DNA of 63,777 nt, filler included. It is 8 parts of 8 records of this genome, joined end to end, with 100 filler letters (N's around TTAATTAATTAA, not from the genome) between each part and the next. Parts side by side here need not be neighbours in the genome. Positions count along the whole stretch, not along the records: positions 51,896 to 58,043 come from SRR31156797_4889; 7 more parts are not named here. One strand, written 5' to 3'. The position numbers and the translations under genes were made by a program. Positions 7,271-58,043 of this stretch are shown here, piece after piece (the first letter of the stretch is position 1; each line of letters opens with the position of its first letter). The notes below the pieces were generated by a model that saw only the letters and a program-made list of their open reading frames with translations, had not been told where the DNA came from and did no database searches.

Positions 7271-7370
7271 NNNNNNNNNNNNNNNNNNNNNNNNNNNNNN
7301 NNNNNNNNNNNNNNTTAATTAATTAANNNNNNNNNNNNNNNNNNNNNNNNNNNNNNNNNNNNNNNNNNNN
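7271..7370. other. Artificial contig linker
   Basis: N-runs flanking TTAATTAATTAA (stops in all six frames), 100 nt. Confidence 0.97.
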
Positions 7371-7375
7371 TGTCA

Positions 7376-7417
7376 TTTTGTATTTTACAAAATACAAAAT
7401 ACAAAATACAAAGTCAA
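7376..7417. repeat. TACAAAA heptamer tandem repeat (three full units plus one partial) and one inverted copy, inside a leftward promoter-like sequence
   Basis: TTTTGTA at 7376-7382; TACAAAA at 7386, 7393, 7400 and partial at 7407; TTGACT on the minus strand at 7412-7417. Confidence 0.6.
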
Positions 7418-7638
7418 GCGTTTTGTAAATCAACACATAAAAGGCTCATCAACTCAGTGTAAGGGATAAAAGAGATATCTGTTCAAAATGTCTTGAATAT
7501 TTGAGTAGTTGGAGCGCAGGTAAAGAAAATATTTAAAAGATTGAGATAAACAACTCTCTTAATAAAAACAAGGGCTCTCTGGTCACACGCTCTTGTTTAC
7601 ATAATGGGGCCTTTGCGAGACTTCGCTGTCAGGCCGTT

Positions 7639-10092
7639 TTATATCTTTTTTCTGTCCAGGACCTTGCGTATAACTTCGGTAAGTTTATAAGCATTGATCG
7701 GTTTTGTAATTAATTCGGACACTCCGGCTTTACGGGCTTCTTCTTCTATCTTGGGGCCAAAAAAACCAGATGCAAGTATAATTGGAATGTTAATACCGGT
7801 TTCTCTCAACTTACGCGCTATTTCCAATCCGGTGAAATGCGGCATTGAATAATCGGTGATAAGCATATCAAAATCGTTCGGATTTGTTGCCAGGGCCGTC
7901 AAGGCGTCCCTGCTGTCAGCAAAAGCCGTCGCATGGTAACCGAAACTGTTCAATATATTCTGCATTGTCAAGACAATTGCTGTTTCGTCGTCCACAACGG
8001 CAATCCTTTCCGTACCGGTCTTGATAGATGAATCGATTTGATACTCTTCCGAATCGATTGCTTCCAGGCAAGGAAAAAAAATGTTAAAAACAGAGCCTTT
8101 TCCAATCTCGCTATAAACTGTAATAATCCCGTCCAATTTATTTACTATTCCATGCACGACGGATAATCCAAGCCCGGTGCCCTCGCCTTCGGGTTTGGTG
8201 GTATAAAAGGGGTCAAAGATACGGTTTCTAATCTCCGGTTCCATGCCGCTTCCAGTATCAGAAACGCGAAGTACTATGTGTTTCCCCTTTTTTATATTGG
8301 GGTGCGTCTTTGTGAATTCTTCATCCACAAAAAAGTCTTCCAATTCCAATTTAATTGTTCCACTGTTTTCCCCGATTGCATGAACGGCATTAGTGAAAAG
8401 ATTCATAACAACCTGGTGAATAAGAGTCGGTTCCGCCATTATGGCTGAATCCGTCTTCATTTCAGAATGAATATCGATTTTGGCGGGTATGGATGCTCGT
8501 AGAAGTTTCAAGACTTCTTTTATAACGGATTTAAGCGCCAAAGGTCGTAGTTCGACTTCTGTTTTTCTGCTAAAAACGAGTATCTGCTTGACAAGATCGC
8601 GTGCTCTTTCCGAAGCTGCGATTATTTGCCTTATATTTCTTTCCATATCTGAAACAGAGCCCTTTTTTAAGAGGGTCAACTCTGCGTAACCAAAAATACT
8701 GCCAAGAATATTATTGAAGTCGTGAGCTATTCCTCCGGCCATCGTACCTATGGCTTCAAGCTTCTGAGCCTGCTGGAGCCTCATTTCATGCACTAGTTCC
8801 GCTGTAATATCCCGGCCTATTTCAAGATAGCCCTCAATGGCGCCGCGCTCGCTTCTTATGGGAATAATCATAACACCAAGTGATATAGCCATGGAGTTAT
8901 CGCCTTTAATCGAGACTCGGCCCGACCAGGGAGCGCCTGCTTCAAGGGAATCCCAAATATCGCCGTCCGGAACATTATTCAGACTGTTAATTTCTAACTC
9001 TGTACCTATTATTTTTTCAGGTATTATTCCGGTTAATTTTTCAAAGGCGGGGTTTACGCCAATAATTTTTTTATCCAATCCTATTTGTATGATTAATTCG
9101 TTTGAGTGCCGGGTCAGATAATCCAGCATCTCCATAAACTTGTGGATAGGCCGGCTGATCCTGCTTGATGTAATTATTATTATGATGATTGTAGCTATCA
9201 GAAATAACATTCCACTGATGAAGATTGCGAGCAATACCTTATTCACCGGGGCCATTATTTCTTTCTGGCTTTGGCTGAATACGGCAATCCACCCGGTAAG
9301 GCCCACCATGTCGAGGCCGGCAATTCTTTCAACTCCCTCAAATGTGTAGGTTGCAACCCCTGTCTGCCGGCTCTGAATCACTGAATTTAATTTTTCCGAG
9401 CCCGGCTGATCCGGAACACGCACCTTAAGAATGAATTCTTTTCTTGGATGCACCAGTACAAGCCCTTCGGAATCGAGCAAGTAAGCGTAACCTGTGTCTC
9501 CGTATTGTGTTTCTGACAGAATTTTAATAATAAATTCTATATCGAAACCCAAGACGACGGCGCCGTAAAAATCATTATTTTCTATTATTGGGGCGCTTAC
9601 AAGCATGATGAGGTTACGGGGCGTTGCTGTTCCCCTTGCATGCAAAGGCCCCGAAATGCTGCTTTTTCCTTGTTTTGCCTTCAGGAAATATTCACGATCC
9701 GAAAGATTCAGACCAATTTGTCGGCGGAAACGGGGGTCCGCCCTGGCAATGCCGTTTCTATCCAGTAAGAATATTGTAGAAGTAGGCGTGCCTATACGTT
9801 TGTGTATTGCTTCCAACTCTACCTGGACTTCATTGTAATCCCCTGTTTTGGATGCTTTTACTACAACTGGATCCGCCGCAATGGATGAAGCAAGCAGTAT
9901 CTTCTGTCTCAAGATTGTATCTATTTTGGAGGATATATCATTTGCGAGATGGATTGATCTGTCTTTGGACATTTCCAAAAGGGAGCTGGAAAGCTGAATG
10001 TATATAATAATTCCTGCGATAGTGAAAGGTATTAACACAGCGGCGACGCCCGCGAATATCATCCTGAATTTTAATGCCGTATTTTTTACCAT
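7639..10092 (-). CDS. Hybrid sensor histidine kinase (TM-Cache-TM-PAS-HisKA-HATPase-REC)
   Basis: GGIAHDFNNILG H-box, QVVMNLFTNA N-box, DTGSGM, FDPFYTTK, GTGLGLS; REC with DD, D and KP. Confidence 0.93.
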   Translation of the reverse strand: MVKNTALKFRMIFAGVAAVLIPFTIAGIIIYIQLSSSLLEMSKDRSIHLANDISSKIDTILRQKILLASSIAADPVVVKASKTGDYNEVQVELEAIHKRIGTPTSTIFLLDRNGIARADPRFRRQIGLNLSDREYFLKAKQGKSSISGPLHARGTATPRNLIMLVSAPIIENNDFYGAVVLGFDIEFIIKILSETQYGDTGYAYLLDSEGLVLVHPRKEFILKVRVPDQPGSEKLNSVIQSRQTGVATYTFEGVERIAGLDMVGLTGWIAVFSQSQKEIMAPVNKVLLAIFISGMLFLIATIIIIIITSSRISRPIHKFMEMLDYLTRHSNELIIQIGLDKKIIGVNPAFEKLTGIIPEKIIGTELEINSLNNVPDGDIWDSLEAGAPWSGRVSIKGDNSMAISLGVMIIPIRSERGAIEGYLEIGRDITAELVHEMRLQQAQKLEAIGTMAGGIAHDFNNILGSIFGYAELTLLKKGSVSDMERNIRQIIAASERARDLVKQILVFSRKTEVELRPLALKSVIKEVLKLLRASIPAKIDIHSEMKTDSAIMAEPTLIHQVVMNLFTNAVHAIGENSGTIKLELEDFFVDEEFTKTHPNIKKGKHIVLRVSDTGSGMEPEIRNRIFDPFYTTKPEGEGTGLGLSVVHGIVNKLDGIITVYSEIGKGSVFNIFFPCLEAIDSEEYQIDSSIKTGTERIAVVDDETAIVLTMQNILNSFGYHATAFADSRDALTALATNPNDFDMLITDYSMPHFTGLEIARKLRETGINIPIILASGFFGPKIEEEARKAGVSELITKPINAYKLTEVIRKVLDRKKI

Positions 10093-10456: not shown

Positions 10457-11890
10457 TCAAACATAATTGATATGAACGGCCAGCAGGATAAAAGCCGCGC
10501 TGACAGCCATGAGAGCAAGCTGAAGCGGGATAAGCCACTTGAACCAATCCTTGTAACTCAGCCCGCCAAGTCCGATGGCGATCAGCAGCAAGGGATTAGT
10601 GGGCCAGATAAGGTTGGAAAAGCCGTCGCCGCATTGAAAGGTCAGGACGACCGTCTGCCTGGTAATGCCTATCAAATCTCCTAAAGGGGCTAGTATGGGA
10701 ACCGTCAATACCGCCTGTCCAGTGCCGGAAGGAACAAAAAAATTCATCAGCATCTGGAAGAAATAGAGCATCAAGGCGGCCGCTCCCTTGCTGAAGCCCT
10801 GGATTCGCTCGGAAATATAATAAAGCATGGTATCCATGATGCTTCCTATTTCAATAAGGTAACCCACGCTGGCGGCCATGAGAATCAGTATGATAGCCGG
10901 TGAAAAATCGGCCAGACCTTTATAAAAATAGGTGAATGTTTTTTTGAATCCGTTTCCGGATATCAGGCCGACGCCGATGCCCATGAAGAGAAAAATCAGG
11001 GCGATCAAGGGGAAGGCCAGGTCCTGCAATACCGGAACAAAGGTCCCGCCGGCCACAACGCCCATAATTAGGGCGAAACAGAAAAGAATGAAGTAGACCG
11101 CGCTCGAACTCCCTTTGCCCCTGGCCGTGGTTTCGATATTTTGAGCCGCCTCTCTCCGGATCGAATCCGTCTCATAGGTCAGGCCTTTGCTTGGATCCTT
11201 CTCAATCTTTCGAGTGTAATAGAGCAGGTAGGCAATAACCAGGGATGTGGAGATAATGAATAAGGGCAGCCTCAGCGCCAAGCCGGAAAAAAGCGGCACG
11301 TCGGCAAGTTTTTGAGCCGTGCCCACTGTAAAGGGATTGAACATGGCCGCGGAAAAGCCGAATCCGGCGGAAACAAAGGGAATGGCCGTGCCCGTGACCG
11401 CATCCCAGCCCATGCGATAAGCCAGGGGAACGAAAAGCAGGATCATGGGAACGATTTCTTCAAGTATGCCTAAACTGGATCCGAGCAGCGCAAAAACAAG
11501 CACGTTAACTATTATGAAAAGAGTTTTACGGTTGGCGAATCTTTCTCCCAATCCGGTCAATAGAGACGGCAGGACGCCGCTTTTGTTCATAATGGAAAAA
11601 CTGCCGCCGATAGTCAGTATAAAAAATATGAGAACGATTATTTTAGGTCCGTTTTTACCGGTTATGCATAGAATCGGCGATAATGCTATTTTCCAAACAG
11701 GAACAGGAGCTTGTTCGATTCTGTTATATATTTTTACAACGCCGCCGTTTTTTTCCATATCGACAAATTCACCGGCCGGTATAAAGTAGCCGGCCGAGCC
11801 CGCCGCAATGATAAGCACTCCGAGCAAAATGATTGTGGCCATGAAGACTTTGAGTTCTATAAGCGAGCCTTTACCGGCTTGTTCATTCAT
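10457..11890 (-). CDS. YfcC/DcuC-family membrane transporter
   Basis: FIPAGEF, NPFTVGTAQKLA, FVPSGTGQA, GDGFSNLIWPT motifs; many TM helices. Confidence 0.85.
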   Translation of the reverse strand: MNEQAGKGSLIELKVFMATIILLGVLIIAAGSAGYFIPAGEFVDMEKNGGVVKIYNRIEQAPVPVWKIALSPILCITGKNGPKIIVLIFFILTIGGSFSIMNKSGVLPSLLTGLGERFANRKTLFIIVNVLVFALLGSSLGILEEIVPMILLFVPLAYRMGWDAVTGTAIPFVSAGFGFSAAMFNPFTVGTAQKLADVPLFSGLALRLPLFIISTSLVIAYLLYYTRKIEKDPSKGLTYETDSIRREAAQNIETTARGKGSSSAVYFILFCFALIMGVVAGGTFVPVLQDLAFPLIALIFLFMGIGVGLISGNGFKKTFTYFYKGLADFSPAIILILMAASVGYLIEIGSIMDTMLYYISERIQGFSKGAAALMLYFFQMLMNFFVPSGTGQAVLTVPILAPLGDLIGITRQTVVLTFQCGDGFSNLIWPTNPLLLIAIGLGGLSYKDWFKWLIPLQLALMAVSAAFILLAVHINYV

Positions 11891-12105
11891 ATTGAGAAAT
11901 CCTTTTCCAGTCGAAGTTATTGAAAGAGATGGAACCGCGCTGTATCAAGCTCCATAGGCAGGATGCATTTTCCTTCCTGTTTCCCTTGGCGCCCAAACAC
12001 TTGGTTTTTCAACGATAGCGGTCAAACCCGATCATAAGGTATTGTAATACAAAGTAATCTGTCAAGAAATAAAAGAAGGGGCGATGGGAAAAGGCCGGTT
12101 GCAGA

Positions 12106-13128
12106 TTACAGCCCCGTCCCCATTTCAAGAGATTTTAGAAGCTTTTCCGCTTCAGTAAAATCCGGATTAATCGTCAAGGATTTTCTAAGGACATGGCGGG
12201 CCTGGTCGAAGTTTTTTATGGCCATATACACCCTGGCCAGGTTAAACATTATGTTTTCATCTTCAGGCGTTACTTTCAGGGCCTTGATGTAGAATCTGAC
12301 GGCTTCCTGGTAATTACCCTGCCTCCGGTAAACGATGCCGAGCGTATTGTATACATTAATGGTGTTTGGGTTTATCCGGACGGCTTCCAACAGAACTTTT
12401 TCCGCTTCACTATCCATCTGGTTTTCCATATATATCTCAGCAGCTTCCTCCAGGCATTTCTGGGCCTCATCCATGCGCCCCATCAACGCGTATACATCCG
12501 CCATTTTTTTATAGGCCTTGGCATATGCACTGTCTATCTGGGTGGCCCGCCTGAAATTTATGATTGCTTCTTCGTATCTTTTTTGAGCGGCCCTGATATA
12601 TCCTATATTGTAATATGTTTCAGCAGATTCATATACATTCAGTATACGGTTGAATTCATTAAGCGCCAGTTGATAATCGCCGGACTTCATGTAATCTAGC
12701 CCTTTGGCAAAGCCTTGTTCAAAATCCTTGTCCTGAGCGGCATGTACTTCGCTGAATATACCTTCCAGTTTTGTTTTTATGGATTCAGCAGTTGGGGGAA
12801 TAGTGATGATATCGGAAACGCCGGCCTGACCGGCTTCAATAACCTGTTCAGCCGTTATTTCCTGTACCGCAAGTATGCATGGCAATTCGGCCAGCAAGTT
12901 GTCCGCCCTGATGATTTTCAGGAAGACAAGACCCGTCATATCGGGCAAATCCCAGTCGCTGATCACTAAACCAATGTCAAAATTCTTTATCAGACGCCAG
13001 GCGTCAGCTCCATTATCGGCCTGGTGGATGCTTTGATATCCCGCGGCCTTTATGTGGCCTGACATGTCCTCGCGTTGCGGTCTATCGCTGCTAACCAAGA
13101 GAAATGTAGTTTTATCTTTTTCAACCAA
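12106..13128 (-). CDS. Receiver-domain/TPR-repeat protein (degenerate REC)
   Basis: LVISDWDLPDMTG followed by several TPRs (YYNIGY, YNTLGIVYRRQG, FNLARVY). Confidence 0.85.
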   Translation of the reverse strand: MVEKDKTTFLLVSSDRPQREDMSGHIKAAGYQSIHQADNGADAWRLIKNFDIGLVISDWDLPDMTGLVFLKIIRADNLLAELPCILAVQEITAEQVIEAGQAGVSDIITIPPTAESIKTKLEGIFSEVHAAQDKDFEQGFAKGLDYMKSGDYQLALNEFNRILNVYESAETYYNIGYIRAAQKRYEEAIINFRRATQIDSAYAKAYKKMADVYALMGRMDEAQKCLEEAAEIYMENQMDSEAEKVLLEAVRINPNTINVYNTLGIVYRRQGNYQEAVRFYIKALKVTPEDENIMFNLARVYMAIKNFDQARHVLRKSLTINPDFTEAEKLLKSLEMGTGL

Positions 13129-14099: not shown

Positions 14100-15410
14100 A
14101 AGATGCTGGACAACCCGAAGTACAACTGCGCCATGGGCAAAGACCAGAACCTGTTCCAGGCCTTTGTTGAGACCTGCCAACGGGACGGCAGCGGTTTTGT
14201 GGATTATCTCTGGCCCAAACCCGGTGAAGACACCCCGCAACCCAAATTGTCCTATGTTATGCTTTTCAAGAAATGGAACTGGGTGATCGGGACGGGAATT
14301 TACATCAATGACGTTGAAATGAAAGTCCAAAAAACCACGGCGGAACTGGAAGCGAAAGTCGATAAAATAGCTGCCGAGATGGGCAAGGAGATCCATCAGA
14401 CCAATATTCGCATCAACAAGAACGTCACCAGGGGGTTGATGCTCATCGCTGTGGGCAGTGTCGCTGTTCTGGCGGCGGTGCTGGTGCTCGCCACATTCTG
14501 GACCAGGCGATACATCAACACCCCCATCAATCAATCGGTTCAGAAGCTCAGCGGTGTCACCCAGAAACTGGCCGGCAACATCAATCAAGTTTCAATATCC
14601 TCACAGGACCTGGCCAAGGGAGCATCTGAGCAGGCGACATCCATCAAGGACACATCGTCGGCCCTGGACGAAATAACCGCCATGACCGACCGGAATGCCG
14701 ATAACGCAACCCAGGCGGATGCGCTCATGGGAGAAACCACCCGGGTGGTAATCAAAGCCAACGATTCCATGACTGAATTGACAACCTCCATGGAGGATAT
14801 CTCCAGGACGAGTGAGGAGACATCAAAAATCATCAAGACCATTGATGAGATTGCGTTCCAGACCAATCTTCTGGCCCTGAACGCCGCGGTGGAGGCGGCC
14901 AGGGCCGGCGAGGCGGGCGCCGGTTTCGCCGTTGTGGCGGACGAGGTGAGGAATCTGGCCATGCGCGCGGCAGAGGCGGCCAGAAACACGGCGGACCTCA
15001 TCCAGGGGATTGTAACCAAAGTGCATGAGGGCGCAGAGCTTGTCACCCTTACCAATGAGGCCTTCAGCCAGGTGAACGGCAGTACGAAAAAGGTCGGCGA
15101 ACTTGTCGGTGAAATATCCGCGGCCTCCGGGGAACAGGCGGACGGGATCAAACAGGTTAACAACGCGGTTGCGCAAATGAACAAGGTGGTTCAGCAGAAT
15201 GCCGCCAGTGCGGAGGAGTCCGCGGCTGCGGCGGAAGAGATGAGCGCCCAGGCAGCACAGATGCGGTGTTCGGTTTCCGATATGGTGGCCCTGGTCGGGG
15301 GGCATGGACAGAAACAGGGAGAGCTACCCCCTGGGGGAAATAACCCTCCGGATGTCATGTCAATCGCCTTTGATGACAAAGCCCCTGGGATCGAGCCCCG
15401 TGGCCGATGA
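14100..15410 (+). CDS. Methyl-accepting chemotaxis protein with Cache_2 sensor (5' truncated)
   Basis: YLWPKPG...PKLSYV...[10 protein letters not shown] Cache motif; [37 protein letters not shown]. Confidence 0.95.
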
Positions 15411-51895: not shown

Positions 51896-51973
51896 CCTGA
51901 CCCCATCGAAGCGAGCGAAGCAAATCCAGCCCACGCATCCCTACATCGATCCCTATAACACCGCCTACCCCGG

Positions 51974-53008
51974 TTATGGCTGACCCAAATTAAAATTCAA
52001 GGTGCGTGCCAGTGTCCGGTACATGACACAGGCAAGTTGGACCTCATGGTGTCGGTTGTAGTAGAGCCTGCTGGGGCACTCCCCGGGGCAGCTCCGGTTC
52101 AGGGGGCAGTGGCCGCAATCTTCCCGGCCCCTGGCTTGTCCCAAGGAATAATCTTCCAGGGAAATGCGAGGGGCCGGAGTCCCGGAATCATCCAGGGTGC
52201 CAAAACAAAAACGCGGATCAAAGGCCGTCTGGGTGCAGGGAAACAGGGAACCGTCCGGGGTGACCGCAAGGCTTTTTCCTGCCGCGGCCTGGCAAAAGCA
52301 TTGGGGAGCACGCCCCGGGCTCTGCTCCCTGATCCGGGAGAGCTCCCTTAATTGCAGGCCCTGCCGTCTCATTTTATTGACCGTTTCAAGGGATTGCACC
52401 ATGCGGACCAGGGCCTTTTCAAGCCGGTCCGGTTCCGCCGGTCCCAGGCCCTTTTGGGCATTGCCCTTGCGGATCAACAGATCCAGCCCGATCCCCCTTG
52501 CCCCGGCATAGCCCCCCAGCACAAGGGGCAGCTTGTACAGGGCGTCCACATTCCGGCGGGTCACCACCGTGGTTACGTTAAACGGGATCTTGTTTCGTTC
52601 CAGGACCGACATGCCCTTGAAGGTTGCCGGGGCCGCCCCCCGGGTGTTGTCCTGGATCTCCGGGGGACCGTCCAGGCTGATGCCCACATCCATATGAAAC
52701 CTGGCCATCATTCCGGCCATGTCATTGTCCAGGAGGGTGCCGTTGGTCTGTATCCCCAGGGTGGAACCGGGACTCACCGCCCTCAGCTTTTTGGAGGCGT
52801 ACTCGATCAGATGGGGAACCAAGGTGGGTTCCCCCCCTGAGAGCTGTAAATGAAAGGGGGTGCCGGCGGATGCGGCAAGCTCGATGGCCCCGTCGATCAG
52901 CCCTTCATCCATGGCCCTGTTTGCCTTGTTCTCCCCCAGGTAGCAGTAGGAGCAGTCAAGGTTGCAGGCGCTGGTGAGCATCAGGATCAGATAGGACGGG
53001 ACAGGCAT
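51974..53008 (-). CDS. Radical SAM protein with SPASM-type auxiliary cluster domain
   Basis: CNLDCSYC, GGEPTL, QTNG, ISLDG; C...DGSLFPC...CGHC...C.GEC...C. Confidence 0.92.
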   Translation of the reverse strand: MPVPSYLILMLTSACNLDCSYCYLGENKANRAMDEGLIDGAIELAASAGTPFHLQLSGGEPTLVPHLIEYASKKLRAVSPGSTLGIQTNGTLLDNDMAGMMARFHMDVGISLDGPPEIQDNTRGAAPATFKGMSVLERNKIPFNVTTVVTRRNVDALYKLPLVLGGYAGARGIGLDLLIRKGNAQKGLGPAEPDRLEKALVRMVQSLETVNKMRRQGLQLRELSRIREQSPGRAPQCFCQAAAGKSLAVTPDGSLFPCTQTAFDPRFCFGTLDDSGTPAPRISLEDYSLGQARGREDCGHCPLNRSCPGECPSRLYYNRHHEVQLACVMYRTLARTLNFNLGQP

Positions 53009-54207
53009 TTTACCATTTCAACCAGATGGGATTCGCTTGTGGAAAACTTCATGGCCCCGTGCTCCGTTGGGGTAAAAAAATCTTTGCCGCTGCCGTTCCG
53101 CATGCTGAGCACCGGCTTGCCCATGGAGACCGCCGTCTTCAAAAGATCCAGGTTGCCCGAGTTGATGGCCGCCACCTCAAACCCCGTATCAATGACACAG
53201 TCACACCGTTGCATCTCCGCCCCGGCGGATTCCATGCTCTCCCGGGTAATCTCCCCGAAATGATCCTGGACCAGGCAGTCCGCCCCAAGGGATCGAGCCA
53301 CATGGAGATCGATGTCGTTCCGGTGCAGCACCCCTGTGATGATGCCATACCCTTTTTTGGAGAGCAGGCGATAGAGCACGGAGGAGCTGCCCATGCCCCC
53401 CACCACAAACACCCTGCCCCGGTCCACCCGGTTTGTGATCTCAATGGTGCCAAGGAGCCGGTTGAACCGGGCATTGGAGAAATCGTAAAGATCGTTCACC
53501 GTATCCTCCCGGAGCACCTCCTCCGGGGGACCGAAGGCCCGGATCTCTCCGGCCTTCACCAGGGCCACCTTGTCCGAGAGCTTGGATGCGATCTCCACAT
53601 CGTGGAGGGAGGCCACCACACAGATCCCTTTTTCCCGGCACAACCGCCGGAGGATGGACATGAGCTCCATCCGGTGTTTCAGGTCAAGGTGCATGGTGGG
53701 CTCGTCCAGGAGAATGATTTCGGGCTGCTGGGCAAGGGCCCTGGCCACATAAATCTTCTGGCGTTCCCCGTCGCTCAGGGTATTAAGATCCCTGTAGACA
53801 AGATCCCCGGCCTGGACCATTTCAATGGCCGCCATGATCTCCCGCTTATCCTCGTCCGAAAGCCGGCCCTGCCAGCCCGTATGGGGATACCGGCCCATGG
53901 CCACAAAATCAAACACCCGCATCAGGGGCGGCGCCACTTTTTCCGTGAGCACAACGGACATGGTCCTGGCAAGGTCCCGCTGGACGATATTGCCAAGGGC
54001 AACGCCCCCCAAAGCCACCTCTCCCCCCAAGGGAACAAGGTGCCTGGACAGGGTTCGCAACAGGGTGGTCTTGCCCGCGCCGTTGGGCCCCAGCAGGGAG
54101 ATGAACTCCCCTTTCAGGAACTCAAGCCGCACATCTTCAAGCACGGTTTTCTTCCCGTACCCCACACACAGATCCTTTGCGGATAACACCGCCAACGTTT
54201 GATTCAT
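52987..54207 (-). CDS. FecE/BtuD-type ABC ATPase with ~140-aa C-terminal extension
   Basis: GPNGAGKTT, LSDGERQK, LLDEPT.HLD, SLHD; extension VFVVGGMGS...TGVLH.NDID. Confidence 0.92.
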   Translation of the reverse strand: MNQTLAVLSAKDLCVGYGKKTVLEDVRLEFLKGEFISLLGPNGAGKTTLLRTLSRHLVPLGGEVALGGVALGNIVQRDLARTMSVVLTEKVAPPLMRVFDFVAMGRYPHTGWQGRLSDEDKREIMAAIEMVQAGDLVYRDLNTLSDGERQKIYVARALAQQPEIILLDEPTMHLDLKHRMELMSILRRLCREKGICVVASLHDVEIASKLSDKVALVKAGEIRAFGPPEEVLREDTVNDLYDFSNARFNRLLGTIEITNRVDRGRVFVVGGMGSSSVLYRLLSKKGYGIITGVLHRNDIDLHVARSLGADCLVQDHFGEITRESMESAGAEMQRCDCVIDTGFEVAAINSGNLDLLKTAVSMGKPVLSMRNGSGKDFFTPTEHGAMKFSTSESHLVEMVKCLSRPI

Positions 54208-55265
54208 ATCCGTGTCCTCCGTTTCAAAAGCAGGCTGATCACAATGGGCGCGCCAAAAAACGCCGTGATGGCGCTGATGGGCAGCTCCACCGGACTGAAT
54301 ACCGTCCGTGCAATGAAATCACACAAACTGATCACCATGGCCCCCACAAGCACCGAGCCCGGGATCAGCACCCGGTTGTCCGAGGTGGCAAACAGCAGCC
54401 GCACCATGTGGGGCACGGCCAGGCCCACAAACGCCACAGGGCCTGCCATGGACGTAACCATGCCCGCAAGGGCGCAGGCGCTCATCAGTATCAGCATCCT
54501 GAACAGCCGGATATTCACCCCCATGGACGCCGCGTAATCCTCGCCCAGCAAAAAGGCGTTCAAGGGTTTTGCAAGAAAGAAGACCAGCACCAGTATCAGG
54601 CCGCCCAGGATGCACAAAAGCTCGATCTCGCTCCATTTAAACCCGGAGAAGCTGCCCAGCTGCCACAGGACAAACCCCTTGATCTTCTCCTGTTCCGCAA
54701 AGGCCACCAGCACGCTTGTGACCGCATGGCACAGGTATCCCATCATCAGTCCCACGATCAACAGGGTCACCCCGTTTTTGACCCGGTTGGCAATGACGAG
54801 CACGATGAGCATGGTGCCGTAGGCCCCCACAAACGCGGCCAGGGTGCACATGAACGGATTCACCAGGGTCATGCCCAGGGTCACCGAGGTCAGCATCACA
54901 AAGGAGACCATGAGGGTGGCCCCGGAGGAGATCCCCAGGATAAACGGTCCCACAATGGGATTCCGGAAATACACCTGGAGCAGCAGCCCGGCCACAGCCA
55001 GGCACCCGCCCCCCATGGCCGCCGCAATGGCCCGGGGCATCCGGATCTTCCAGATGATAAAGCCCCTCGTGCTGGCCGTTTCATGGTTAATAAGGATCTC
55101 CATGATCTCCTTGAACCCCATATCAATGGAGCCGATCAAAATATTCATGGCCATGAACAACAGCAGCACCATGCCCGCAACCAGGAAAACCATCCGCTGC
55201 CGTTTCTTCACCCCGGCCTTGTAGGTATCCACCGGGGGCAGTGTTTCAGCAAAAGTCGTTGCCAC
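54204..55265 (-). CDS. FecCD/BtuC-family ABC permease
   Basis: IRMPRA, FRNPIVGPFILGISSGA, LGEDYAASMG, FVGLAVPH. Confidence 0.94.
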   Translation of the reverse strand: MATTFAETLPPVDTYKAGVKKRQRMVFLVAGMVLLLFMAMNILIGSIDMGFKEIMEILINHETASTRGFIIWKIRMPRAIAAAMGGGCLAVAGLLLQVYFRNPIVGPFILGISSGATLMVSFVMLTSVTLGMTLVNPFMCTLAAFVGAYGTMLIVLVIANRVKNGVTLLIVGLMMGYLCHAVTSVLVAFAEQEKIKGFVLWQLGSFSGFKWSEIELLCILGGLILVLVFFLAKPLNAFLLGEDYAASMGVNIRLFRMLILMSACALAGMVTSMAGPVAFVGLAVPHMVRLLFATSDNRVLIPGSVLVGAMVISLCDFIARTVFSPVELPISAITAFFGAPIVISLLLKRRTRI

Positions 55266-55295
55266 GTTTTCTCTCCTTTAACAGGTTCATCAGTT

Positions 55296-56396
55296 TCACG
55301 CCCCGGGGTCCGTGTCCGGCAGCTCCCGGAAATACCGGGACACATGGCCCGGATAGCAGCTCGGATGAAGAATGGCGGCAATGTCCGTCAATATCTCGTC
55401 CAGCTTGTCCCCGGACTGGGAGTAAGTGGCATAGGGCGAGTACACCTTGCCGTCCTTCAGGGGCTTCAAGCCCGCCACCAGGGGATTCGCCCTGGCCAGC
55501 GCCGCCTTGGAGGTGGCCCCGTTTTTAGGCGTACGGTAGGTAAAGAAGATTTCAGCATCCTCTCCGCTGTAAAGAAAGCGCTCAAGGGAGATCTCAATAC
55601 AGGATTTTCCAATAACGTCTTCAAAGAGATAATCACTTTGAGCAAGGGCAACCAGCTCCCCCACCCAGGCGTTGCCGGGCTCAACAAGCACCCGCTTCTC
55701 ATAGATATCCCCCCAGATCACCTTGGGGTTTTCCGGGGCGTCCTTTGTCACCTCCCGGATTTTATCAAGGGCGCCGGACACCTTGCTGAAATACGCCCGG
55801 GCCTCCTTCTCCTTATTGAAAAACGGGGCGATAAAGCTGACAAACTTCATCCTGGCGTTAAGGCACATGGCCACCGGGGTGGAGGTGACCACACAGGCAA
55901 CCCCCATCTCATCCAGCATGGGGATGATGGACATGTCCCAGGTGAGCACCAGTTCCGGCTCCGACGCCTTGAGCCGCTCAAAGTCAATGGCATTGTAGTT
56001 TCCCAGGAAAGTGATCCGGTTCTCCGCCATCCCCTTGACCACCTCGGGTATGGTCCAGTCCTCCTTCTTTTTGGTAACCCCCACCAGCACATCCTCGATC
56101 ACCCCAAGGGCTTTGAGGATGGAGATATCAAAGGACCCATAGGCGGCCACCCGGCGAACCGGCGTCTCCACCACCTGCCACGGCTCATACCCGTCAGGGG
56201 CCTTTTCCCCCCTGGGGATCAGCACCAGGGTCCTGCCGGCGCCGTCCCGCACCTCGGTCCACCCCTGGCCGATCTTGTTCACGGCAAACCCGCCGATGCT
56301 CATGAACCCCGGCTCACCATCCGCCCCATTGTCTTTCCCGCATCCCGCCGCGATCAACACCCAGCAGCACACAAACACCAACCATTTTATCTTCAC
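55296..56396 (-). CDS. Class III (iron-chelate/cobalamin) substrate-binding lipoprotein, in frame with the upstream ORF
   Basis: Own AGGAGG SD (56404-56409), GTG start, IAAG-C lipobox; DGAGR, PVRRVA, IDFERL...PELVL. Confidence 0.82.
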   Translation of the reverse strand: MKIKWLVFVCCWVLIAAGCGKDNGADGEPGFMSIGGFAVNKIGQGWTEVRDGAGRTLVLIPRGEKAPDGYEPWQVVETPVRRVAAYGSFDISILKALGVIEDVLVGVTKKKEDWTIPEVVKGMAENRITFLGNYNAIDFERLKASEPELVLTWDMSIIPMLDEMGVACVVTSTPVAMCLNARMKFVSFIAPFFNKEKEARAYFSKVSGALDKIREVTKDAPENPKVIWGDIYEKRVLVEPGNAWVGELVALAQSDYLFEDVIGKSCIEISLERFLYSGEDAEIFFTYRTPKNGATSKAALARANPLVAGLKPLKDGKVYSPYATYSQSGDKLDEILTDIAAILHPSCYPGHVSRYFRELPDTDPGA

Positions 56397-57212
56397 GCCC
56401 TGTCCTCCTGCCGGGGTATGCCTGGACAATTTATCCCAAAGGTACATGAACAGCCCCAGGGTAAAGAGAACCATGCCACTGAAGTAAAACTTCATGCCCG
56501 GATCATTTTTAATAATTACGGTGATATATTTTTTCCGTCCCATCCCCCCTTTGGTCTGGGGAGCAAACTTCTTCAAATGGATGCTCAAGGAGGCAAACCG
56601 GACAGGACGGTTAAAGCCAAGCTCAGCGGTTTTACACCGTTCGGCGTCCCGCATCGTAAGCACGGCCCTCACATCGATGGCCCGCCGGTCCATGTGGATC
56701 ATCCGCCCCCCGGCGTAGTAGTCAATGTCCAGCCCATCGAGGGTGATGGTGCATGCGGGCCGGGCAATGGTTATGGATTTCCCCGGCAGCAGCACCTTTC
56801 CCATGTGGGTCCCCGCCGAAAGATAGCTCACCAGATACCCCAGGAACATGATGAGCATGCTGTAATGCATGATATGGGGCCCGAATCGCAGCAAAAACCG
56901 CGATCGCCGACTAAAGGCATGCCGGCTTTTCACCAGCATCCAGACCCGCTCGGTGGTGCAGACAAAGGTGTTCACCGAAAGCAGCCCCAGCAGCCCCACC
57001 AGGATGAACAGCCAGGCCGTGTTGGCAGGATAGTGGCTGCCATAGGTCTGGGCCCACCGGTAAAACCCCATGTCATTGATGGGATCAAACAAGGCCCCAT
57101 GGAACTTCAGCTGGTTGTACCCCAGCAAAAGATCCGCCACCATGCAGGCGATGATCCCCATGAAAAAATTGATATGCCCCAAAAACCGCCACGCCTTGTG
57201 TATCATTTTCAT
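56397..57212 (-). CDS. Short ResB/CcsB-like membrane protein (no stop before the SBP)
   Basis: NTFVCT, GPHIMHYS TM-His, FNRP, final NDPG plus TM helix; ATGA-coupled to the ccsA-like gene. Confidence 0.65.
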
Positions 57213-58000
57213 AACTTGATCTCCGGCACCATGAAGATGCCAAGCTCAGGCACCAGGTTGAACAAAAACACGAACACCGCCCCCAGAAGAGCAAAAATCG
57301 CCCGGGATCTCACACCATTCAGGCCGGTCAAATGCAGATGAAGGAACAAGGTATAGTAAAGCCAGGTGGCCATGGTGGTCACCAGCAGCGGGTCCTCCCA
57401 CACAATGGGCGCCCCCCATCCCAGGTAGGCCCACACCGCCCCGGAAAACACCGAAAGGGTCCACAAAAAATAGCCCCAGACCACATGGGTGCCCATTCGC
57501 TTCACCCGGTCGCCCCGCGCCTGTTCCCCAAGCACGAGAACCGCCCAGGCACCGGCGAGCAAAAACAACGCCTTGCCCCCCCCCCCCAGGAGAAAGAAAC
57601 CATGGGCAAACACGGTCTTGAACTGCAAAAACGGCAGATAGAAATCATTGGGAAAGAAAAGGGCCGACCCGGCCAGCACCACCACCAGCCCCCCATGGAT
57701 GACGCTTCCCTCTCCTTTTAACAGGGATCGTGCACAGAAAAGCCCCACAACAAAGGGAATAAAGTACGCCCCCTGGTAAAGGGGCAGCAACGGATAGGAA
57801 CTCCAGTAGCGAACGGCCAGGGAAAAGCCATTGCACAGGCAACCGGCCCCAAGGAGCATCCCCCCCAGGCCCTGCCGCTTCATCACCACGGCCCCAAGGG
57901 CCACGGCATAGAAACAAAATGCAATGAAAAAGGAATTTTGAATCAGGTCAAGTGTTGCAGCTGTCGTCAATACATACCCCCACAAACGCAAAAAATCCAC
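57209..58000 (-). CDS. CcsA/ResC-like heme-handling protein with divergent WWD domain
   Basis: YPLLPLYQ, FAH TM-His, SGAVWAYLGWG...WEDP, WLYY..FLH. Confidence 0.8.
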   Translation of the reverse strand: MDFLRLWGYVLTTAATLDLIQNSFFIAFCFYAVALGAVVMKRQGLGGMLLGAGCLCNGFSLAVRYWSSYPLLPLYQGAYFIPFVVGLFCARSLLKGEGSVIHGGLVVVLAGSALFFPNDFYLPFLQFKTVFAHGFFLLGGGGKALFLLAGAWAVLVLGEQARGDRVKRMGTHVVWGYFLWTLSVFSGAVWAYLGWGAPIVWEDPLLVTTMATWLYYTLFLHLHLTGLNGVRSRAIFALLGAVFVFLFNLVPELGIFMVPEIKL

Positions 58001-58043
58001 AAATTGAAAGATATCAATCCGTGGATTTCCCTTTTTTATCCAT

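Follow-up and report, generated by a model that had tools for sequence, protein, structure and literature searches.

What would two proteins related to the heme-handling CcsA and ResB be doing at the head of an operon for a Btu/Fec-type importer? The question is raised by one contig of about 6.1 kb (positions 51897-58043) within a stretch of DNA of 63,777 nucleotides (nt), referred to here as the window, in which genes for a CcsA-like and a ResB-like membrane protein are followed by those for the binding protein, permease and ATPase of an ATP-binding cassette (ABC) importer and for a radical S-adenosylmethionine (SAM) enzyme. With a confidence a little better than even, we favour the reading that this is the core of a corrinoid acquisition operon, repressed by a cobalamin riboswitch, of a Desulfobacteraceae-like bacterium. 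One part of that reading, that the operon serves the B12-controlled uptake and processing of corrinoids, we consider very probable. An earlier interpretation, the sequence-only reading, had already taken the set to be a non-canonical CcsA/ResB pair, joined to a Btu/Fec importer and a radical SAM enzyme, that handles a tetrapyrrole rather than maturing cytochromes, and to that extent our results agree with it.

The control and the neighbourhood of the operon can be followed in its relatives. CcsA-like matches are present in 33 of 401 sampled genomes of Thermodesulfobacteriota (E 1e-10), and about 17 kb was examined around each match. Five loci from species genomes (L001-L005), all metagenome-assembled genomes (MAGs) of Desulfobacterales or Thermodesulfobacteriota, encode CcsA-like proteins with identities of 95, 80, 80, 51 and 42% to that of the window. 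Together with L036-L052 and L064 they make up 23 loci that we refer to as the B12 type. The order CcsA-like, ResB-like, binding protein, permease, the conservation of which the sequence-only reading had proposed as a check, is kept in all 23, and the ATPase gene comes next after the permease in 22 of them; in L045 a TonB-dependent receptor takes that position instead. Of the 23 loci, 18 have a cobalamin riboswitch (RF00174, 72-126 bits) upstream, on the strand of the operon. It is directly 5' of the CcsA-like gene (104-497 nt) in nine, including all five closest relatives; in the others a TonB-dependent receptor, TonB/ExbBD or CobN stands between it and the pair; two further loci are cut off by contig ends in this search. 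The neighbours of the core also belong to B12 metabolism and TonB-dependent uptake, as had been anticipated for some of them: an orthologue of the chelatase CobN (1254-1284 residues) is found within about 10 kb in 20 of the 23 loci, and TonB-dependent receptors, ExbB/ExbD/TonB, DUF3450, CbiZ, CbiK, BtuR/CobA and ChlD/ChlI also occur.

On the contig itself a search with RF00174 gave no match, and Rfam as a whole gave only one at chance level (E 0.98), the contig stopping 43 nt upstream of the first gene. Those 43 nt can be placed. In L001 and L003 the riboswitch ends 110-155 nt ahead of the start codon of the CcsA-like gene, and 58001-58043 align with this post-aptamer leader with 41 of 43 columns invariant. 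By this match the contig stops within the leader, which makes the CcsA-like gene the operon's first; the idea that the operon continues upstream, off the contig, towards an unseen target is not supported, as in the closest relatives the operon starts at this point. The leaders of the window, L001 and L003 also share an identical nine-codon open reading frame (ORF; ATG...TGA, 58014-58043, minus strand), which may belong to the riboswitch's expression platform or have arisen by chance. In two other loci, two or three cobalamin aptamers follow one another on the same strand (L073, 5194-5723, 150 nt apart; L076, 294-2487, 0.5-1.2 kb apart), upstream of the end of the locus that carries the TonB receptor or CobN.

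Could the pair nevertheless be an ordinary System II cytochrome c synthase, with its cytochrome encoded off the contig? Family matches and names would allow it. PF01578 matches the CcsA-like protein over residues 169-249 with 32.4 bits against a cut-off of 29.9, PF05140 likewise exceeds its cut-off on the ResB-like protein, and public records label the relatives 'cytochrome c biogenesis protein CcsA'. However, on TIGR03144, the equivalog model for CcsA, the protein reaches only 33.3 bits against a cut-off of 187.6, and true CcsA is encoded elsewhere in related genomes. Each of G001-G005 has the CcsA-like gene and a second weak match (E ~1e-4); on TIGR03144 the second CcsA reaches 289.8 bits in G002 and 285.2 bits in G004, and it follows a partner of 451-468 residues and, in G004, precedes the multiheme cytochrome QrcA. 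Upstream of the pair there is a riboswitch or a TonB-dependent receptor rather than a cytochrome. No CXXCH motif occurs in contig ORFs of 60 residues or more, in line with the sequence-only reading, and same-strand ORFs with the motif are found in only two of the 23 B12-type loci, one of them being the ATPase frame and neither being conserved. With the absence of P-His2 described below, ordinary cytochrome maturation is hardly credible as the task of these genes. The pair is a divergent module of the CcsBA fold and not the cytochrome synthase of the cell. The other refuting outcome named in the sequence-only reading, a canonical lyase beside its own cytochrome, did not arise either.

The fold itself was compared through predicted structures. 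The model of the CcsA-like protein (predicted local distance difference test score (pLDDT) 85.6, predicted template modelling score (pTM) 0.85) is closest to CcmF (6zmq; VIA Z 19.1, root-mean-square deviation (rmsd) 3.7, 237 residues aligned) and to the CcsA half of CcsBA (7s9y, residues 409-890; Z 17.9, rmsd 3.8, 246 aligned); the next unrelated structure is at Z 12.2, and Foldseek puts the same three entries first. For the ResB-like protein the L001 orthologue was modelled (pLDDT 87.0), and it matches the CcsB half of the same entry (7s9y, residues 3-342; Z 11.8, rmsd 4.6, 219 aligned, Foldseek E 9.2e-07). By sequence, a profile of the CcsA-like alignment found no solved chain. At E 1e-30, 1e-10 and 1e-3 the CcsA-like family counts 56, 165 and 1175 representatives respectively among 1.84 billion, and its named cultured carriers include Desulfobacula toluolica, Desulfocicer vacuolatum and Desulfocicer niacini.

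The heme-handling family is defined by a four-helix core, a WWD loop and, on the periplasmic side, the histidines P-His1 and P-His2, to which CcsBA and CcmF add a pair of transmembrane histidines (PMC10663686, partial text, as for all later citations of it). Most of these features can be recognised here. The CcsA-like alignment has a WWD-like loop between W175 and W201, with W175, W190, W195, W201 and W213 as conserved tryptophans. H133, conserved in at least 90% of the sequences, is at the position of P-His1, at the start of helix 130-158 before the WWD hairpin, and H221, which is invariant, is at the transmembrane position, where the helix that follows the loop has its inner end. No conserved histidine that could serve as P-His2 is present in the 11-residue tail after helix 230-252 in the 23 sequences, in which only G254 is invariant. 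The invariant residues of the ResB-like partner are C85 on helix 2 and H113 and H116 at the inner end of helix 3, giving one transmembrane histidine position in each protein (H221; H113/H116). For the ResB-like protein four helices are predicted, along with a periplasmic beta domain that is small (about 100 residues). At 272 residues, against 451-485 for the partners of true CcsA in related genomes, the protein lacks the large ectodomain, and its PF05140 match covers only profile positions 150-266 of 486.

The same pair is kept in a sister clade (L054, L056, L057, L058, L060 and L061; 27-30% identity) that has no riboswitch and no BtuFCD, apart from a FecCD permease and an ATPase in L057. Directly behind the pair these loci encode a protein with a signal peptide and an Oxidored_molyb-like domain, followed by members of the tetrapyrrole-methylase and amino-acid-permease families, and they also contain a TonB-dependent receptor and ExbBD/TonB (L054, 609-8188; L061, 7985-14734); the Pfam content is that of L054, L056, L057 and L061, and L058 and L060 share the ORF layout only. 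This looks like a second undescribed uptake locus related to tetrapyrroles. In both clades the pair precedes an exported protein and lies within a TonB-dependent uptake locus. A function shared between the B12 type and the distant matches L053-L063 was considered and rejected, as the latter lack BtuFCD and the riboswitch and form a separate clade.

What the importer may carry is hinted at by its own sequence. Peripla_BP_2, FecCD and ABC ATPase are found together (60.7, 266.1 and 93.7 bits), as in type II importers. The best NCBIfam match of the permease is BtuC (NF003001, 207.8 bits; cut-off 334), and that of the ATPase, over residues 7-345, is the 'corrinoid ABC transporter ATPase' PRK09536 (221.1 bits; cut-off 537). 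The ATPase also has a C-terminal extension of about 150 residues, of the kind found in the model of the archaeal-type corrinoid ATPase. Together with the riboswitch and the B12 salvage genes of the relatives, these matches, all below their cut-offs, point to a corrinoid of the B12 family as the probable substrate, and not to heme or F430.

The binding protein carries what, judged by eye, is a lipoprotein-type signal (LIAAG/C), and one residue stands out in it. Cys266 (codon TGT, 55599-55601) lies in the motif G-x-S-C-[ILM]-E-[IV]-x-x-E-[RK]-F and is invariant apart from five of the 22 relatives (L005, L037, L038, L044 and L052), in which the column holds a TGA codon for selenocysteine (Sec), the only in-frame TGA of each gene; all the other aligned binding proteins, that of the window included, have cysteine. 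Each of the five TGA genes has a hairpin of 8-9 bp from +14 to +37, its loop reading GUU[UC] and one pair being compensatory, that resembles a selenocysteine insertion sequence (SECIS). In most of the Cys-type genes this peptide is encoded by codons from which no such hairpin forms. A tRNA-Sec was found with 69.8-77 bits in four of the five genomes; the fifth, G383, gave 50.4 bits, a level that controls reach too. An aligned TGA, a SECIS-like hairpin and tRNA-Sec thus occur together in relatives of the binding protein. A second selenocysteine in the radical SAM gene of G383 was considered and dismissed, as that TGA lies outside the gene. A precedent for a thiol at the cobalt is BtuM, in which base-off B12 is bound with a cysteine on the metal and cyanide is removed (PMC6072759, partial text).

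The position of this protein directly behind the pair raises the possibility that the pair delivers heme to it, to be bound at the single Cys/Sec by ligation or through one covalent link. CcsBA is known to export heme to a client in the periplasm (PMC10663686), the binding protein is the only periplasmic protein of the operon and has one invariant Cys/Sec, and docking of its mature form on the CcsA-like/ResB-like pair gave a score of 0.44 (runs 0.72, 0.38 and 0.44; at least 46% shared contacts, partner pLDDT at least 82) against 0.00 for the best of three controls, which lends weak support to a predicted contact between the two and to heme delivery alike. Of 78 solved complexes 51 reach the docking mark, as do 2 of 108 mismatched pairs. 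But there is no CXXCH and no histidine beside the cysteine, P-His2, one of the three features of the attaching site (PMC10663686), is lost, the control is by cobalamin and not by iron or heme, and the rest of the locus is one for B12 salvage. We consider dedicated heme delivery improbable.

A further explanation would leave the heme in the membrane. Here the pair would be a redox conduit, holding a stable heme b at the transmembrane histidines, in the manner of CcmF, and passing electrons outward to reduce a Co(III) corrinoid or the Cys/Sec, with the upper ligand shed before import. A Sec/Cys site usually marks redox chemistry, the transmembrane histidine is invariant in both partners, and in the sister clade the pair precedes the signal-peptide Oxidored_molyb-like protein, an arrangement that recalls periplasmic reductases fed by a membrane heme protein. 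The best structural match, moreover, is CcmF (Z 19.1), for which the stable transmembrane heme has been proposed to conduct electrons (PMC10663686). No quinol site or electron donor was identified, however, and the conserved WWD loop and P-His1 would be needless for a pure conduit, though CcmF keeps both too. We consider such a conduit unlikely, if less so than heme delivery.

The radical SAM enzyme at the end of the operon carries its CxxxCxxC motif as CNLDCSYC at residues 15-22, a position that leaves no N-terminal peptide-recognition domain. Its C-terminal cysteines (C-x19-C and CxxCx5CxxxC) are of the SPASM type, the Pfam SPASM model itself not being among the matches at E 0.01. The sequence-only reading had named AhbC, AhbD and NirJ of the heme pathway among SPASM enzymes, a likeness that did not survive comparison: they match with 51.8, 51.4 and 49.7 bits, over the N-terminal half only and against cut-offs of 650, 500 and 515, which is below PapB (102 bits) and anaerobic sulfatase maturase (96), themselves far under their cut-offs. 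There is no precursor peptide gene beside the radical SAM gene in the operon, and its homologues carry only the name 'radical SAM'; one relative is recorded from Chloroherpeton.

Its partner would instead seem to be CobN. The sample of 401 genomes holds 25 matches to the enzyme in 24 genomes (E 1e-40), and a CobN orthologue follows on the same strand at 13-361 nt in 21 of the 25, the exceptions being those in G119, G395, G255 and G235. In L002, L003, L004, L036, L041 and L042 the CobN ORF (1254-1269 residues) begins within a few bases of the end of the radical SAM gene. The couple comes after the ATPase in these six loci and in L037, and precedes the CcsA-like gene in L043, L049 and L050; in the window the radical SAM gene likewise follows the ATPase, and the contig ends before any position for CobN. 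The idea of an accessory confined to a single sub-clade was overturned when the enzyme turned up, mostly 5' of CobN, in 17 of the 19 sampled genomes of the B12 type; G100 and G236 gave no match, and seven genomes without the pair have it as well. As a separate observation, CobN of L037 (4876-8759; G318:C98:23878-27650) is present as two overlapping pieces with one in-frame TGA, which could point to a frameshift, to a pseudogene or to a further recoded site.

The CobN homologues of anaerobes are recognised as a puzzle (PMC12583661, in part). Another explanation is that the locus harvests metal: a metallo-tetrapyrrole would be imported and stripped by the CobN-type enzyme of its cobalt or iron, scarce in sulfidic habitats, and the metal rather than the cofactor would be the gain. 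HmuS, a member of the CobN family whose gene neighbours those of a TonB-dependent receptor and a MotA/ExbB-type protein, has been proven to be a heme de-chelatase (PMC12583661, in part), L004 and L036 have DUF3450, MotA/ExbB and TonB genes after CobN, and the CobN-like BtuS has been proposed to salvage metalloporphyrins (PMC6460266, partial text). Unlike the exported BtuS of the same source, CobN of L003 has no signal peptide; ChlI/ChlD, typical of ATP-driven insertion, accompany CobN in L005, L039, L051 and L064; and CbiZ and BtuR in the loci point to the use of whole corrinoids. We rate metal harvest as low as heme delivery.

In the mechanism that we favour, scarcity of B12 would lead to expression of the operon, and a TonB-dependent receptor would bring the corrinoid into the periplasm. 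There it would be taken up by the BtuF-like lipoprotein, with the invariant Cys/Sec acting on or ligating the cobalt, before the BtuC/BtuD-like importer moves it into the cytoplasm, where the radical SAM enzyme and the CobN-type chelatase may rework the macrocycle or the metal. The pair would be a cut-down CcsBA-type module that has lost P-His2, the CXXCH client and the large ResB ectodomain and has retained the transmembrane histidine pair, the WWD loop and P-His1. It may bind a metal-tetrapyrrole through its histidines, the corrinoid itself being the most likely candidate, and would work at the periplasmic face with the binding protein encoded directly behind it. The loss of P-His2 fits a ligand with one free axial position, such as a base-off cobamide, for which a single histidine on one face would suffice, and fits a lost or altered function equally well. 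We see even chances that the binding protein and its tetrapyrrole are what the pair works on, or with; that it binds a corrinoid rather than heme is a tentative suggestion. The fullest version, in which a heme-handling fold has been recruited to corrinoids, the pair being a His-ligating cobamide dock or channel that exchanges with the Cys/Sec lipoprotein while the radical SAM enzyme and CobN rework the import, is more doubtful again. The re-export of a cofactor, which had also been suggested from sequence, finds nothing here that shows it.

Several observations weigh against this picture. In model bacteria BtuFCD alone suffices for B12 import, which leaves the pair without an obvious task. The permease and the ATPase are below every NCBIfam equivalog cut-off, and at E 1e-05 the binding protein has no match among the NCBIfam models. 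A single-sequence search found no solved chain for it either; its nearest solved relative by profile is 4ovk, an unnamed periplasmic binding protein with tryptophan at the Cys site. The histidines were assigned from the topology of predicted models and aligned ranges, not from coordinates, and the docking score is weak by the calibration of the tool itself, scores of 0.60 or less being those of only five of the 78 complexes and of all four passing mismatches (of 180). No RF00174 lies within about 8 kb upstream in three of the 23 loci (L039, L040 and L044), and the window itself shows no riboswitch since its contig ends first. The closest relative, L001 (95%), has no radical SAM or CobN gene after the ATPase, so that this module is not obligatorily in the same operon. 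Lastly, the known direction of CcsBA is the export of heme to a periplasmic client (PMC10663686).

The contig can be read independently of the remainder of the window (1-63777), which consists of unrelated contigs chained through N runs and ttaattaattaa, its GC content jumping piecewise from about 0.33 to 0.60; genes across such a linker are uninformative about each other. N runs with ttaattaattaa linkers stand at both borders of 51897-58043, in which GC is 0.56-0.61, against 0.33 in the flanking piece on one side and 0.43-0.50 on the other, and its nearest relatives are MAGs of Desulfobacteraceae. Every long ORF with a family match is on the minus strand. Six tightly coupled genes had been described from the sequence. 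Their orientation, order and coupling, through ATGA overlaps at 57212-57209 and 54207-54204 and an overlap of 22 nt between ATPase and radical SAM genes (52987-53008), were found as described; the contig as given, however, holds five ORFs and not six (CcsA-like, a fused ORF of 638 residues, FecCD permease, ABC ATPase and radical SAM).

The difference is due to a single base. The run at 56413-56416 has four C, one more than L001 and L003, and in all three related contigs from other public runs it has three. The extra C, 24 nt before the GTGA by which the ResB-like and binding-protein genes of the relatives overlap, shifts the ResB-like frame, with the result that the two are read as one ORF, of which the first 270 residues are ResB-like and the last 366 Peripla_BP_2. 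The relatives have separate genes for a ResB-like protein of 272 residues and a binding protein of 362-376. An independent assembly of the probable source run, a run that is not independent of the window, keeps four C at a word depth of about 101. An assembler error is for this reason unlikely, and the fusion is probably a real allele of the population from which the contig comes. No fused form is present among the best 120 homologues of the binding protein (357-409 residues), lengths up to 1117 having been searched. The GTG start of the binding protein (56396), the AGGAGGA ahead of it (56403-56409) and the lipoprotein-type signal are intact in the window, and in the fused protein the binding domain would, by the predicted helices, stay periplasmic. 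We count the fusion among the observations in favour of our reading, as we do the exported protein behind the pair in the sister clade. A different interruption of the ResB-like gene is seen in L005, in which it is split by a DDE transposase of 569 residues (11056-12765, minus strand, on a contig of 4.7 Mb); the remaining operon, including the selenocysteine-type binding protein, looks intact.

Table. Features of the contig at 51897-58043, in positions of the window (aa, amino acids).
Feature	Position	Strand	Evidence or remark
Operon leader remnant	58001..58043	-	In relatives, the region that links the aptamer of the cobalamin riboswitch to the first gene; here the aptamer would lie beyond the contig end
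CcsA-like membrane protein, 263 aa, GTG start	57209..58000	-	PF01578 32.4 bits; TIGR03144 33.3 bits
ResB/CcsB-like membrane protein, 272 aa in relatives	56393..57212	-	PF05140 29.9 bits
Fused ORF, 638 aa	55296..57212	-	PF05140 at residues 108-217, PF01497 at 355-591
Four-C run with one extra base	56413..56416	-	Comparison with L001, L003 and related runs
BtuF-class (Peripla_BP_2) binding protein, 366 aa	55296..56396	-	PF01497 60.7 bits
FecCD/BtuC-type ABC permease, 353 aa	54204..55265	-	PF01032 266.1 bits
ABC ATPase, 406 aa	52987..54207	-	PF00005 93.7 bits
Radical SAM enzyme, 344 aa, SPASM-type C-terminal cysteines	51974..53008	-	PF04055 54.7 bits
Tail of 77 nt beyond the radical SAM stop codon, up to the contig end	51897..51973	-	CobN follows here in some relatives

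Some further genes and regulatory elements were seen around the relatives. An activator of corrinoid enzymes of the RACo type (667-676 residues), under a cobalamin riboswitch of its own, adjoins the uptake operon in L001 (11969-14285) and L003 (4550-6853), and in L003 a toxin-antitoxin pair of the HipB/HipA type (7359-9051) lies between the RACo gene and the riboswitch of the uptake operon. L001 also has a c-di-GMP-I-GGC riboswitch (14705-14781, 65.6 bits) just 5' of a gene for a PEP-CTERM protein. Two molybdenum-cofactor riboswitches are found in L067 (3471-3594 and 5299-5419, minus strand) near a weak, partial CcsA-like match.

How much of this is new? The importer and its regulation by cobalamin are of an already known kind, and there is a real chance that the new element is a function for the heme-handling fold. 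To our knowledge the CcsBA fold is known only from cytochrome c maturation. BtuFCD is regarded as the settled answer to how B12 crosses the inner membrane, and the conserved, riboswitch-controlled version described here has three extra parts: the CcsBA-fold pair, the Cys/Sec site that its binding protein carries, and a radical SAM enzyme tied to a chelatase of the CobN type. Among the papers listed in full-text searches, none gave a link of a CcsA/ResB-like protein to a cobalamin riboswitch or to B12 uptake, a fixed radical SAM-CobN couple or such a Sec/Cys site in a binding protein. The paper by Rodionov et al. (2003), from which the BtuS idea originates, may describe parts of the locus. The available portion of PMC545781 makes no mention of a link between CcsA/ResB and B12, and CobN-like 'BtuS' genes were noted in B12 transport loci long ago (PMC6460266, partial text). 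The role of the pair in a B12 operon appears to be undescribed. Were the fullest version of our reading true, this would be the first member of the heme-handling superfamily for a non-heme tetrapyrrole and a new step in bacterial B12 uptake. As public records name the relatives for cytochrome c biogenesis, the family is being mis-annotated, and as it occurs in cultured strains its function can be tested directly. Corrinoid traffic shapes anaerobic communities that depend on cobamides, those of sulfate reducers and dehalogenators for example.

Among known systems, the importer is nearest to BtuFCD and the archaeal-type corrinoid ATPase PRK09536, with which it shares the three families, the long C-terminus of the ATPase and, in the relatives, the riboswitch; its binding protein differs in being about 100 residues longer than the E. 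coli BtuF chains in the PDB (245-255 residues) and in the invariant Cys/Sec. BtuM is comparable as a B12 uptake protein with a thiol, the counterpart of the strongly constrained thiol or selenol found here (PMC6072759, in part), in an unrelated fold and at a different location, and the ligation of cobalt by Cys266 is a proposal of this work. For Sec in substrate-binding proteins, as a metal ligand, SaoB/SaoX are the precedent (bioRxiv 10.1101/2022.07.06.499078, in part); their models (NF040727 and NF040735) do not match the binding protein of the window at E 1e-05. A selenoprotein 'BtuF, CxxU' is listed in the partial texts of PMC13188914 and PMC9312934, and the family is absent from the main text of the source paper cited for it. 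The motif here is G-x-S-U-[ILM]-E, with no cysteine three residues before, and on this comparison, by listed motif only, the two need not be the same family.

The radical SAM enzyme shares with the SPASM enzymes PapB and sulfatase maturase the CxxxCxxC motif and the C-terminal cysteine pattern, in alignments of nearly full length. It differs from them in not reaching their cut-offs, in having no precursor peptide gene and in its fixed neighbour, the CobN chelatase. The same clustering of a CobN-family protein, a TonB-dependent receptor and MotA/ExbB-type genes is found in the hmu/BtuS loci of Bacteroidota. According to the available parts of their sources, however, these loci are iron-regulated and directed at heme, their CobN-like protein is exported, and no CcsBA-like pair, radical SAM partner or riboswitch is described for them.

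For the pair itself there are two points of reference. CcmF, the heme lyase of System I (6ZMQ), is the best fold match of the CcsA-like protein, and its histidine pair holds a stable heme b (PMC10663686). CcmF, however, is a single long protein, acting on cytochromes together with CcmE and CcmH, and none of these is found in the loci. CcsBA, or ResB-ResC (Helicobacter hepaticus, 7S9Y/7S9Z), has the same two-part fold, with a WWD-type loop, P-His1 and one transmembrane histidine in each partner, and the genes of the two partners are likewise adjacent and overlapping. In comparison with CcsBA, the pair described here is without P-His2 and without a CXXCH client, is much shorter at 263 and 272 residues, and has its place in a B12 uptake locus under a cobalamin riboswitch.

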